A stretch of 64,000 bases of DNA. Source: an uncultured Gemmatimonadales bacterium. GTDB taxonomy: Bacteria; Gemmatimonadota; Gemmatimonadetes; Longimicrobiales; RSA9. The stretch lies in NCBI GenBank assembly GCA_963708135.1, contig OY970192.1, positions 3,136,001-3,200,000 of the forward strand, in the 5' to 3' direction. The notes beneath the pieces are model-generated. The model had not been told where the DNA came from, did no database searches, and worked only from the letters and a program-made list of their open reading frames with translations. Below, piece by piece: positions 26,148 to 55,148 of the stretch (within the stretch, counting starts at the first letter, position 1; every line of letters begins with the position of its first letter). The translations under genes and the position numbers were made by a program.

Positions 26148-26289
26148 CTCGCGGCGCGATAAGGATCGCGCAATGGGCGGGCGCCGAATCGCACCCACCC
26201 TCGCGGCGCGATAAAGATCGCGCAATGGGCGGGCGCCGAACCGCACGCACCCACGCGGCGCGATAAAGATCGCGCAATGGGCGGGCGCC
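26148..26289. repeat. Array A: ~3 x 52-bp tandem repeat with a GCGCGAT-N4-ATCGCGC hairpin
   Basis: Units start at 26148, 26200, 26252: ctcgcggcgcgataa(g/a)gatcgcgcaatgggcgggcgccgaa... Confidence 0.95.
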
Positions 26290-26495
26290 ACGCCGTCCAG
26301 ATCCGGAATCATCTCGGAAACCGGGCAAGATCGCGGGCGCGGCGTCGCCGAGAGGCGGCGGGTGCGCCTTTCTTCTCGAATCCCGATCAAGAAGGCGGTC
26401 GCGATCCTCGCGGCGAGGTCCGCTCGCCGATCCTGCTCGCCGCCCGCCGCGCGGATCGGCTGTCCGTCGCGCCCGCGCGGGCGAACCCGCGACGG
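26290..26495. repeat. ~200-bp segment, copy 1 of a long direct repeat flanking the DUF559 gene
   Basis: Near-identical to 27857-28059. Confidence 0.95.
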
Positions 26496-26549
26496 CGGCC
26501 CGATCGGAGGTTCATCCCGCGGTGCCGGCGGCCGGGCCTGACGGGCGGC

Positions 26550-27494
26550 CTATGCCCGATGTGCGCGGTGCCGGGGGGCGGCTGCCTTGCGCGCCCCCGC
26601 CAGGGCGAGAATCTGGCCGATCTCGACGGCCACGGCGGTGGGCTCTCGCGTGAGCCGTCGCCAGCTCACGCGGATGACCTCGATGCCGCGGGCGCGCAGC
26701 CACGCGTCCTTGCGGCGGTCGCCCTCGAACCGGGCCCGGGACGAATGGTGCTGCCAGCCGTCGATCTCGATAGCGACCCCCTCCCGGGGCCATAGGCCGT
26801 CCACCTCGTAGGGCCCGATCGCCACGTTGAGGTGCGGGCGCGCCAGGTGGCCGACGCGCACGAGGTCCTGGAGACGCTCCTCGGCTCCGGAGCGCGTGAA
26901 CGCCGGGCCGTCCAGATCACCGAGAACGTCCCGGAGCGCCGCCATGCCCGGGCGCCCCCGGTATCGCGCCGGCAGGCGGGCGAGCTCGTCGCTCGTGATC
27001 AGTTTCTGCCGCTCCGCGACGGCCACGCTCTGCTCGATCTCGCGTCGCCCGAGGAGAGCCGCGATGTCCACCAGCGTGCGGCCGGGGGACGTGACCGGAA
27101 TGCCTTCGGCGACGGCGCGCTCGTCCTCCGCCAGCGCCTTCACGTGGTGCAGCCGGATCCCGGCGCGGCCCGCGTGCGCGCTTCGGAAGACGCTGACATC
27201 GAGGGGCCCCGGGCGTTCGGGGCGCGGTCGCACGCCCAGCAACACCGCGCCGGAGAGGTGGCTGAGCAGCGCCCCCGTGCCGCCCGCCAGGACGGCCGCC
27301 ATCTCGGCCGCATGAGGCGCCTCGAACGGTCCAATGAGGTAGACCCCGCTGTGAAGCGGCCGGAATCGGCGGGACTGCATCCGACGACCGATCGCCGCGG
27401 AGGAGAGGCCTGCCCGGAGGAGCTGCGCCCGGCTCACCACGCCGTGCTGCGAGGCGGCCAGCGCCATGACGCGCTCTTCGGTCTCGATATCCAT
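26550..27494 (-). CDS. AbiEi-family N-terminal wHTH + DUF559 (Vsr-like endonuclease) protein, copy 1
   Basis: QHGVVSRAQL, LHSGVY, LSHLSG, IPVTSPGRTLVD, TRSGAE, YEVDGLW, IEIDGWQHH, DRRKD. Confidence 0.9.
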   Translation of the reverse strand: MDIETEERVMALAASQHGVVSRAQLLRAGLSSAAIGRRMQSRRFRPLHSGVYLIGPFEAPHAAEMAAVLAGGTGALLSHLSGAVLLGVRPRPERPGPLDVSVFRSAHAGRAGIRLHHVKALAEDERAVAEGIPVTSPGRTLVDIAALLGRREIEQSVAVAERQKLITSDELARLPARYRGRPGMAALRDVLGDLDGPAFTRSGAEERLQDLVRVGHLARPHLNVAIGPYEVDGLWPREGVAIEIDGWQHHSSRARFEGDRRKDAWLRARGIEVIRVSWRRLTREPTAVAVEIGQILALAGARKAAAPRHRAHRA

Positions 27495-27656
27495 GGCTCA
27501 CACCCGCAGGGTTGCCCGGTGGCTCGGACCGCCCGCACCAGCCCGGCGCGATGTGCGACTGGGTCCGGTGCGGCCGGTGGGGCCCATGATCGCCCGGAAC
27601 GCGGGGCAACCCCATGGCAGGATGCGCCGCGGACCCGCCGGCCGGCCACGAAGCCA

Positions 27657-27856
27657 CTCGCGGCGCGATAAGGATCGCGCAACGGACGGGCGCCACGCCG
27701 CAGGCACCCACTCGCGGCCCGATAGGGATCGCGCAACGGACGGGCGCCACGCCGCAGGCACCCACTCGCGGCCCGATAAGGATCGCGCAACGGACGGGCG
27801 CCACGCCGCAGGCACCCACTCGCGGCCCGATAAGGATCGCGCAACGGACGGGCGCC
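27657..27856. repeat. Array B: ~4 x 54-bp tandem repeat, same family and orientation as array A
   Basis: Units start at 27657, 27711, 27765, 27819: ctcgcggc(g/c)cgataaggatcgcgcaacggacgggcgccacgccgcaggcaccca. Confidence 0.95.
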
Positions 27857-28059
27857 ACGCCGTCCAGATCCCGGATCATCTCGGAAACCGGGCAAGATCG
27901 CGGGCGCGGCGTCGCCGAGAGGCGGCGGATGCGCCTTTCTTCTCGAATCCCGATCAAGAAGGCGGTTGCGATCCTCGCGGCGAGGTCCGCTCGCCGATCC
28001 TGCTCGCCCGCCGCGCGGATCGGCCGTCCCTCGCGCCGCCGCGGGCGAACCCGCGACGG
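27857..28059. repeat. ~200-bp segment, copy 2 of the long direct repeat
   Basis: acgccgtccagatcc...gcgaacccgcgacgg, matches 26290-26495. Confidence 0.95.
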
Positions 28060-28334
28060 GGCAGCGGTCCGGAGCCAGGCGCCAGGTCCTTCCGGCGGCG
28101 AAGGCGCTCCGGCCTGTAGGTCGCCCCCCCGGGCTGGCGGCGCGGGCCGGCCGACCGTAGAACTCCTGCGGAAGCCACCGCGCCGATCCGGTCCGCACCC
28201 CCTCCGAACAGGAGACCGGCATGCTCGTGAGGCACGGGGCGTGGTGGGGCTCGGTTGGGGGGGCGCGCCCGCGCGGCCTGGCGGCGAACGGCGGACGAGC
28301 GCACGACACCTGCGACCCCGGAGAGGAGACCGGC

Positions 28335-52943: not shown

Positions 52944-53155
52944 GGGGAGCGCTCCTTGGGGTCCAGGCTGTGGGGGCTTCGTCGCACGGAGGAAAATAGG
53001 GCATCCGCCTGCCCATTGCGCCATGGACCTGCCCCGCCGCGCTGGCGATGCTCGCGTGGCGAGCGGGCGGCGCGTGCGAGAGTCGCGCGGCGGCGCGCAC
53101 CGGAGCCCGATCGTGGCGTCCGGCGGGCGCACACGGGAGCCCGATCGTGGCGCCA

Positions 53156-53533
53156 GCCCGGCGCACAAAAAAGTCGAACCGTCGGCCCCGGCCGCCACCA
53201 TCCGGCGATTGGATGCGCCCGGCGCACAAGAGAGCCGAACGGTCGGCCCCGGCCACCACCATCCGGCGATTGGATGCGCCCGGCGCACACAACAGCCGAA
53301 CCGTCGGCCCCGGCCGCCACCATCCGGCGATTGGATGCGCCCGGCGCACAAGAGAGCCGAACGGTCGGCCCCGGCCACCACCATCTGGCGATTGGATGCG
53401 CCCGGCGCACACAACAGCCGAACCGTCGGCCCCGGCCGCCACCATCCGGCGATCGGATGCGCCCGGCGCACACAACAGCCGAACCGTCGCCCCCGGCCGC
53501 CACCATCCGGCGATCGGATGCGCCCGGCGCACA
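53156..53533. repeat. Array C: ~6.2 x 61-bp tandem repeat upstream of DUF559 copy 2
   Basis: Units start at 53156, 53217, 53278, 53339, 53400, 53461, 53522; hairpins catcc..ggatg and tgcgc-ccg-gcgca. Confidence 0.95.
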
Positions 53534-53594
53534 TGGGATGGAGCGGGGCACGACGTGACCGTTCGCCGCGGCCCTTCCGGGAGGACTGATTACG

Positions 53595-54548
53595 ATGAGC
53601 GAAGCGGGCAATACCGGTCCGAGCCGGGATCTCGAGGACCGCGTGGCGGATGTCGCCGCCCGGCAGCACGGACTCGTCACGCGGGGGCAGCTCGTCACGG
53701 CGGGTCTGTCGTCGTCGGCCGTGGGCCGGCGACTTCGGGCGGGGCGGCTGCGGCAAATCCACCGGGGCGTCTACCGGCTCGGCCCGCTCACGGCGCCATT
53801 CGCGGCGGAGATGGCCGCAGTCCTGGCCTGTGGCTCCGAGTCCGTCGTGAGCCATCTCAGCGCCGCCGGGATCTGGGTTCCCGCGGCCGCCGAGCCGAGG
53901 CCGCGGCAACCCTCGCGAGTGGAGATCACGACGACGAGCGAGAAAGGGAGGCGTCGCCCCGGAATCCTCGTCCACCATGTGGCGCGGCTCGACCCGGACG
54001 AGCGGACGACCTGGCAGCAGATCCCGATCACCACGCCGGCGCGCACGCTGATCGATCTGGCCGGCGTAGTCGGGAGCCGGGAGCTCGAGGCGGCGTTGGC
54101 GCGGGCCGAGCGGGAAGGCCTCGTCGCCCATGGCGAGCTGCTGCGCCATCTCGAACGGCACCCGCGTCGTCCCGGAAGCGGCGTGCTGCGCGCACTGCTG
54201 GAGGCGGACGGCGACCCGGCGCTCAGCCGCTCGGCGGCCGAGGAGGAGTTTCTCGCTCTCACCATAAAGGCGCGGCTGCCGCGGCCTGCCACCAATGTCC
54301 GGATCGGCGCCTACGAGGTCGATTTCCTCTGGCGAACGAAGGGCATCGCCGTGGAGATCGACGGCTTCCGGTACCACTCGTCGCGGCCTCGCTTCGAGGG
54401 CGACCGTCGCAAGGATGCCTGGCTCCTGGCCCATGGGATCACGGTCGTGCGGCTGTCCTGGCGCCAGATCACGGAAGACGCGCTGGCGACGGCCGTTCAG
54501 ATCGCCCTCGCCCTGCACCGTGCGAGGGGCCCCGCCGCCCAACGGTGA
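53595..54548 (+). CDS. AbiEi-family N-terminal wHTH + DUF559 (Vsr-like endonuclease) protein, copy 2
   Basis: [71 protein letters not shown]. Confidence 0.92.
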
Positions 54549-54559
54549 TGGCACGCCGG

Positions 54560-54695
54560 GCCGCGGGCGCGCAAGTCTGGCCGCGCGCCGTGCCCCGGCG
54601 AGTGTGCGGCGCGACGTGTCCGCCGCGGGCGCGCAAGTCTGGCCGCGCGCCGTGCCCCGGCGAGTGTGCGGCGCGACGTGTCCGCCGCGGGCGCG
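54560..54695. repeat. ~2.2 x 62-bp perfect tandem repeat just after DUF559 copy 2
   Basis: Units start at 54560, 54622, 54684. Confidence 0.92.
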
Positions 54696-54761
54696 TCTGC
54701 AATCCGCCGCTCGAGGACATCGAAGTCCCTGAGACCACCGAATCCGGGTCGGGTCCGGCGT

Positions 54762-55148
54762 ACACAACCGCCGAACCGACCCGGCCCGGGGCGACGACCT
54801 GGCTTCCTTGTGCGCCAGCCGCACACAACCGCCGAACGGACCCGGCCGCGGGCGACGACCTGGCTTCTTTGTGCGCCAGCCGCACACAACCGCCGAACGG
54901 ACCCGGCCCGACGCGACGACCTGGCTCTCTTGTGCGCCAGCCGCACACAACGCCGAACGCGCCCGGCCCGACGCGACGACCTGGCTCTCTTGTGCGCCAG
55001 CCGCACACAACCGCCGAACGGACCCGGCCCCGGGCGACGACCTGGCTTCTTTGTGCGCCAGCCGCACACAACCGCCGAACATACCCGGCCGCGGGCGACG
55101 ACCTGGCTCTCTTGTGCGCCAGCCGCACACAACCGCCGAACGGACCCC
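54762..55148. repeat. Array D: ~6.3 x 61-bp tandem repeat, homologous to array C
   Basis: Units start at 54762, 54823, 54884, 54945, 55005, 55066, 55127; hairpin tgtgcg-ccagc-cgcaca. Confidence 0.95.

Follow-up and report, generated by a model that had tools for sequence, protein, structure and literature searches.

The window analysed here is a stretch of 64,000 nucleotides, positions 3136001–3200000 of a single 5.45-Mb contig with 72% G+C. It carries two genes of the DUF559 nuclease family, and long-period tandem arrays and repeat elements lie beside both of them (Table 1). We call these genes paralogues B and C; they belong to a set of seven, A to G, found in the genome by tblastn, each as a single copy, and one more DUF559 domain sits inside a large unrelated open reading frame (ORF).

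The initial annotation described the two proteins as alignable from end to end, and a BLASTP comparison bears this out (153/308 identical residues, 50%, E 4e-88), with all the motifs that it quoted visible in both sequences. Pfam detects AbiEi_4 and DUF559/MTES_1575 in each protein and no other families (PF04480 scores 28.5 and 28.1 bits in the two, with a cut-off of 20.6); NCBIfam has no model that covers the protein. The AbiEi profile of PADLOC spans residues 4–190 (E 1e-26 to 1e-32), and sequence profile matches of the nuclease domain in PDB include 3hrl (3e-8) and 3r3p (3e-4). An AlphaFold (AF2) model of the family protein, built on 26 aligned members, has a mean pLDDT of 89.9. In a Foldseek search with this model residues ∼1–190 match the AbiEi antitoxin 6y8q (E 1.7e-5) and Rv2827c (1zel), and the C-terminal domain matches the catalytic domain of I-Bth0305I (3r3p, target TM 0.82), the DUF559 protein 3hrl and Vsr (1cw0); among the weaker matches are RAP-domain proteins, which are RNA-associated and have a Vsr-like fold.

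Five residues, D232, E243, D245, H250 and D259 (numbering of paralogue B), are invariant in 26/26 aligned proteins. They fit the E-D-H-D set given for the EDxHD nuclease family (PMC3384342), with a putative residue-by-residue equivalence to I-Bth0305I. The initial annotation placed repeat specificity possibly in the N-terminal winged helix-turn-helix (wHTH); the putative recognition-helix stretch of this module is only somewhat more variable (40% versus 52–56% mean pairwise identity). The protein appears to be a sequence-specific DNA nuclease, predicted to consist of an AbiEi-type winged-helix module and an EDxHD/Vsr-like catalytic domain.

In its first ∼190 residues (from residue ∼4) the protein resembles the antitoxin of the AbiE type IV toxin–antitoxin system in profile and in fold (6y8q; Rv2827c, 1zel), but no AbiEii nucleotidyltransferase (DUF1814) gene is adjacent, as had been remarked before, and a nuclease domain is fused instead. 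The search extends this observation to the genome: PF08843 has no match over the cut-off anywhere, with one weak match of 17.6 bits far from any paralogue. The genes next to the two paralogues, as identified by Pfam, encode a BTAD-TPR regulator, GH3 and GH2 proteins and a truncated hydrolase. With unrelated neighbours and a genome free of AbiEii above the Pfam cut-off, the label ‘type IV antitoxin’ does not account for these loci, in agreement with the initial annotation.

Tandem arrays and dispersed repeats around the paralogues

The association of these genes with tandem arrays is far beyond chance. An array with a period of at least 40 nt lies within 400 bp of 6/7 paralogues (all but A), compared with 2.8% of 20,000 random positions (P ∼4e-9); the whole genome has 78 merged arrays. 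All six array-bearing paralogues have an array upstream, 62–350 nt from the start. With non-coding gaps delimited by a crude gene mask based on GC3 (G+C content at third codon positions), which called only 71% of the genome coding, arrays were present in five of the eight gaps of ≥300 nt adjacent to DUF559 genes and in 48 of the 1014 others (4.7%; Fisher p 1.5e-5). The length of the intergenic DNA is therefore not enough to account for the link.

The arrays derive by amplification from parts of repeat elements that are dispersed and lineage-specific. The 52-nt and 54-nt arrays on the two sides of paralogue B make one family (75–83% identity between sides), and their unit together with the next 190–240 nt forms a single element present at 18 loci genome-wide with 68–95% identity (the ‘B’ family). 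Motif GAGCAAGATCG is present both at the 5′ end and in the middle of this element, with an inverted copy at the 3′ end. The left and right copies agree at 89% over 352 nt including the array units and at 95% over the non-array part; an apparent reach of this duplication into unique flanking DNA was dropped, as the extension is present in other copies of the subfamily too. The 61-mer beside paralogue C forms arrays at three further loci of the genome; a palindromic element of 190 nt, with 18 loci, flanks paralogue F, and an element of 230 nt, with three further loci, flanks paralogue D. The 62-nt repeat just past paralogue C has no second copy in the genome. That B and C carry different repeat families, 52/54-nt units around the one and 61-nt units around the other, had been proposed from the window alone and holds.

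Paralogues B, C, D and F, four of the seven, each lie between two copies of a single family, and the family is a different one each time. Between the two sides of the bracket, identity is 89% at B (over 352 nt), 82% at F (209 nt), 73–76% at D (∼230 nt) and 66–68% at C (∼340 nt). As a control, we collected repeat pairs from the whole genome with arms of at least 100 nt and a separation of 700–3000 nt. Among the 86 resulting clusters, 32 have arms of ≤460 nt and gaps of ≤2000 nt, and a recognizable gene between non-coding repeats was found only in the four DUF559 cases. The other 28, screened with the crude coding mask and at seven loci checked by Pfam, have arms inside coding paralogues (ECF sigma, MGS, SLT-LysM, SurA and an ImuB-like ORF, all Pfam-confirmed), are parts of long-period arrays or of CRISPR, or are pairs without a recognizable enclosed gene; one of them, at genome position 5378528, encloses a 173-aa ORF without a family match.

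Identity within the arrays (89–99%) exceeds that between the sides of a bracket (66–89%); amplification is therefore younger than the bracket and took place separately on each side. It is also concentrated at the gene-flanking copies. Among 35 solo copies belonging to the B, F and D families, only 6 lie within 500 bp of any long-period array. At solo B copies the unit is never amplified; this happens solely at the two copies that flank the gene.

The initial annotation attributed a hairpin to each family. Both palindromes exist, and GCGCGAT-AAGG-ATCGCGC folds as a 7-bp stem, the one plausible single-strand hairpin of the two; the hairpin of the 61-mer is weak, and TGCGCC-C-GGCGCA is better read as a duplex palindrome because its centre is only 1 nt long. 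The 61-mer folds no better than shuffled sequences (z −0.7) and the 52/54-mer element only marginally better (z −1.8), and Rfam has no match at E ≤ 1 within 25500–56000 of the window. We considered CRISPR as an explanation of the arrays and ruled it out: whole units of 52–61 nt repeat at 89–98% identity, there is no alternation of constant repeats and unique spacers, and the true CRISPR arrays of the genome are located elsewhere. Two of these are in the genome-wide list of arrays, at 3644332–3652716 and 5133540–5140399, with a 29-nt repeat of 61-nt period and a ∼37-nt repeat.

Table 1. Features of the two loci and elsewhere in the genome; positions refer to the window unless marked as genome positions, and arrays were called by TRF (Tandem Repeats Finder)
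Feature	Position	Strand	Remarks
Tandem array, 52 nt × 2.8	26147..26289	+	Amplified 5′ segment of the left ‘B’ element copy; carries the GCGCGAT-AAGG-ATCGCGC palindrome
Left ‘B’ element copy	26251..26495	+	Dispersed element resembling miniature inverted-repeat transposable elements (MITE) or repetitive extragenic palindromes (REP); last array unit plus ∼190–240 nt
Paralogue B	26550..27494	−	314 aa; AbiEi-like module (wHTH and C-terminal domain, residues ∼4–190) fused to DUF559/EDxHD nuclease (residues ∼200–300)
Tandem array, 54 nt × 3.9	27654..27862	+	98% internal matches; amplified 5′ segment of the right ‘B’ copy; 160 nt upstream of the paralogue B start
Right ‘B’ element copy	27821..28059	+	Direct orientation relative to the left copy
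Tandem array, 61 nt × 6.2	53156..53533	+	Ends 62 nt upstream of paralogue C; TGCGCC-C-GGCGCA palindrome in each unit
Paralogue C	53595..54548	+	317 aa; architecture as in paralogue B
Private tandem repeat, 62 nt × 2.2	54560..54695	+	100% identical units; begins 12 nt past the paralogue C stop codon; unrelated to the 61-nt family
Tandem array, 61 nt × 6.5	54762..55155	+	Same family as 53156–53533, 66–68% identity, matching in both orientations
Alpha/beta-hydrolase gene, 5′-truncated	55156..55719	+	Pfam aligns it to Abhydrolase_1 from profile position 55 onwards; the 61-nt array runs up to the exact start of the homology
Paralogue G (L035)	genome 4895626–4896516		TGA stop after ∼110 residues (broken); 43-nt × 7 array 320 nt upstream
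ATCCCGCCATGG sites	genome 741502, 741523, 4909233–4909431, 3379579, 3379663		Loci L034, L032, L033; seven other sites in addition

Homologues and shared motifs in other genomes

Homologues of the protein were found in 13/18 further genomes from the taxonomic family to which this one belongs, and in 0/12 from its two sister families. Arrays flank 15/27 loci of these family relatives, which represent 13 other genera; in the two best-assembled relatives they are present at 5/5 loci (G009) and at 3/5 loci plus one weak case (G012). In fragmented assemblies of relatives many of the homologue matches start close to a contig end, no more than a few hundred bases away (for example at positions 27, 282, 452, 421, 20 and 1), as one would predict if short-read assemblies are broken at flanking repeats. 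A species-wide scan was made with a 7-sequence alignment, the 26-sequence one being too diverse. At its 25 Gemmatimonadota loci, at least two of which coincide with loci of the family relatives, arrays are 13 times as dense within 700 nt of the gene (0.50/kb) as beyond 1.5 kb (0.038/kb).

Direct brackets occur in four other genera, with repeats that are dispersed in two of these genomes and private in two. Over all loci, a rough hand tally places arrays downstream about as often as upstream (∼20 and ∼17), which speaks against a role solely as promoter or operator elements, and also against an arrangement like that of ToxI. The commonest array period near DUF559 homologues is 61–62 nt (∼11 of ∼50 arrays in a hand tally); it equals the period of the type I-E-like CRISPR array of this genome.

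The protein family is large, with at least 1582 homologues at E ≤ 1e-20 among 8000 candidates scored. Close relatives of protein B were absent from the collections searched, and a metagenome scan returned one distant match with 33% identity. In a set of 5.8 billion proteins the best match reaches 74% identity and comes from a 1146-nt contig that offers no context. A search for an empty site gave none: in the two genomes in which the DNA upstream of GH3 was examined, the GH3 orthologues (68–70%) have no BTAD neighbour, DUF559 gene or array within ∼8 kb. One low-depth soil metagenome run, with 39% of the words present and no RNA run among those listed, gave short contigs on 22000–32000 of the window, none of which spans an array or the cassette, and the short sides of their joints are typical of other organisms.

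None of 30 relatives searched has a convincing copy of the B element. The one positive sign of co-evolution is a palindrome, TTGACCGCG-N-CGCGGTCAA (also written TTGACCGCG...GTCAA). In this genome it is a dispersed family with ∼20–40 matches, one of them 300 nt upstream of paralogue E, and the motif is also present beside homologues in three other genera. In genomes outside those that defined the pattern, 3 of the 17 palindrome sites, from two loci, have a homologue no more than 500 nt away, compared with ∼0.035 expected. Five of the six palindrome-bearing loci fall into one nine-member group of the protein tree (SH-aLRT 91). We also observed a 61-nt unit that combines the TTGACCGCG...CGCGGTCAA palindrome with a CCCCAC...GTGGGG hairpin; it is conserved across genera and tandem-arrayed (genome positions 867371–867869 and 5092682–5093001; loci L018, L098 and L025).

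The initial annotation proposed that the paralogues and their repeats are orthogonal pairs. The bracketing family is a different one at each of B, C, D and F. The 12-mer ATCCCGCCATGG is common to the arrays upstream of D, E and F, in sense orientation, and this argues against strict orthogonality: 8 of its 15 genomic copies are in these arrays, and ∼1.2 copies are expected genome-wide. At several of the other sites the ATG of ATCCCGCCATGG opens an ORF of 203–629 aa with coding-like GC3, and the 12-mer may be a start-site or leader motif.

A candidate partnership of nuclease and repeats

In the REP/RAYT system a single-copy enzyme gene is reportedly flanked by a dispersed repeat family, with several such pairs per genome, each having a family of its own. 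The likeness of the DUF559 loci to this system, suggested earlier from the window, is strengthened by our results, as the repeats at the loci are members of dispersed families, with a separate bracketing family for each of four paralogues (B, C, D and F). The best-supported explanation of these loci, which we hold with moderate confidence, is a partnership between nuclease and repeats that is laid out like a REP/RAYT ‘REPtron’ on an unrelated enzyme, with an enzymatic link that we infer. The parts differ in both cases. The enzyme is an AbiEi-wHTH fused to an EDxHD/Vsr-like nuclease, with no HUH Y1 transposase detected by Pfam, and the repeats are elements of 190–300 nt and tandem units of 52–229 nt, mostly direct, unlike REP sequences, which are palindromes of 20–40 nt in inverted pairs.

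The protein would bind and nick a motif in its own element. If it acts mostly in cis, the copies adjacent to the gene would go through repeated rounds of break and repair, and young tandem arrays could result; possible action in trans might sustain the spread or persistence of the solo copies. The cassette could be gained or lost by recombination between the bracketing copies, which would act as its homology arms.

Several observations weigh against such a partnership. The layout is one-sided at E and G, with arrays on a single side, and missing at A, which has neither array nor bracket. The paralogues are single-copy, with no sign that the cassette spread recently within the genome, and in the species-wide scan brackets were found at just 1–2 of 38 loci. 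The right copy at paralogue D is nearer to solo copies elsewhere (82%) than to its left counterpart (73–76%). Only the F element folds clearly better than shuffled sequences (z −3.9, with −0.7 to −1.8 for the other elements). The co-evolution of protein and repeat that the initial annotation put forward was not borne out: over 26 loci protein identity and best flank similarity are uncorrelated (Mantel test, Spearman r = 0.05, permutation p = 0.27). The palindrome-bearing loci cluster weakly on the protein tree, with 4 changes against a shuffled mean of 5.5 and 40/500 shuffles as low, for a label that was defined after the fact. Homologues from Actinomycetota, Solirubrobacterales and Microbacteriaceae (33–43% identity) have arrays at 0/13 loci, and the repeats are therefore not needed by the whole protein family.

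The main rival is passive co-location, which we regard as possible though on the unlikely side: selfish, free-standing cassettes of the homing-endonuclease kind would land or survive in dispensable, repeat-rich intergenic DNA, with local instability explaining the pile-up of repeats that are otherwise unrelated junk. The fold of the catalytic domain, the conserved E, D, H and D and the order of a DNA-binding part followed by a nuclease are all shared with I-Bth0305I, and the EDxHD family (3r3p; PMC3384342, PMC3239194) includes free-standing selfish genes. The present loci differ in having no intron or intein, in lying on a bacterial chromosome and not in a phage and in the AbiEi-like nature of the DNA-binding part; no evidence of homing was found here, and repeat brackets are not known to have been described for the EDxHD family. 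Passive co-location gains from the general richness of this genome in arrays and dispersed repeats, from the arrays near 6/35 solo elements, from the array-free homologues of Actinomycetota and Solirubrobacterales, the null Mantel test and paralogue A, and from signs of damage (the truncated hydrolase gene next to C and the broken paralogue G). The GC3 of the paralogues, 0.85–0.89, is likewise slightly below that of typical host ORFs (0.92–0.97). What passive co-location leaves unaccounted for is the specificity of the association: arrays lie in just 4.7% of other long non-coding gaps, in the bracket control two repeats of one family enclose a gene at DUF559 loci alone, the B unit is amplified solely at the two gene-flanking copies and one palindrome motif recurs beside homologues in four genera.

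AbiEi represses its own promoter at inverted repeats. The units could by analogy be operators, that is, binding sites for autorepression by the AbiEi-like winged-helix module that were multiplied by duplication. Palindromes of 13–18 bp in the units, the upstream array at every array-bearing paralogue of this genome, the sense-oriented ATCCCGCCATGG upstream of D, E and F and the match of the N-terminal 190 residues to AbiEi in profile and fold are all consistent with such a role, but we consider it improbable as the explanation of the loci. Over all loci arrays are about as frequent downstream as upstream, some are 400–600 nt from the start, the units belong to elements dispersed at up to 18 other loci, and autorepression would leave both the nuclease domain and the brackets without explanation.

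ToxIN, a type III toxin–antitoxin system, has ToxI repeat RNA and a pairing regarded as cognate. An array transcribed into repeat RNA that neutralizes the nuclease, as ToxI does for ToxN, would account for one private array per nuclease, and a tandem array beside a nuclease gene, different for each paralogue, is indeed what the loci have in common with ToxIN; the RAP-domain proteins among the weaker Foldseek matches also point this way. We nevertheless judge a pair of this type very improbable: the arrays are on either side of the gene or on both sides at once, their units are parts of dispersed DNA elements, the protein combines a DNA-binding wHTH with the catalytic set of a DNA nuclease, its AbiEi plus Vsr-like fold is not the ToxN/AbiQ-like one and the Rfam search of the region gave no match.

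The partnership of nuclease and repeats allows a broader and more speculative form, rather unlikely as a whole, in which AbiEi-wHTH/EDxHD nucleases would be the dedicated enzymes of MITE/REP-like repeats and of arrays resembling variable number tandem repeats (VNTR) in GC-rich bacteria, one family per paralogue, with a nick/fill-in mechanism. Nicks at the inverted terminal motifs, on opposite strands, would make a staggered break of element length; fill-in of this break would duplicate the whole element on either side of the inserted cassette, giving direct brackets, and repeated nicking in cis would multiply the terminal segment, producing tandem arrays. For most interspersed repeats and intergenic arrays of bacteria no enzyme is known, REP/RAYT being, to our knowledge, the main exception, and this class of repeats would gain a testable mechanism. 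DUF559/AbiEi-fusion proteins are, as far as we know, very common and annotated solely as ‘very-short-patch-repair endonuclease’ or ‘antitoxin domain protein’; the proposal would thus give a function to a large family of orphan proteins, and several orthogonal DNA-recognition pairs within one genome would be open to study. A literature search, made mostly at the level of abstracts, found no published account of DUF559 or EDxHD genes nested in repeats.

Neighbouring genes

At E ≤ 1e-15, a search of 30 relatives found no orthologue of the truncated alpha/beta-hydrolase gene next to paralogue C. Its homology begins exactly where the 61-nt array ends, and its 5′ end was therefore probably destroyed by growth of the array or by arrival of the cassette. 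On the other side of paralogue C, the GH2 beta-galactosidase gene (minus strand, 49257 to ∼53030) has an in-frame 33-nt × 3.3 repeat at 52743–52852, which encodes a repeated linker directly after the putative signal peptide.

A GH3 paralogue of another genus, 41% identical to the GH3 protein of the window, is encoded between two DUF559 homologues (locus L088, G006:C380:1-5417; L003 and L024 lie on this contig too); paralogue B of the window is also divergent from an adjacent GH3 gene. The occurrence of GH3 next to DUF559 in two genera could be a coincidence or a preferred neighbourhood.

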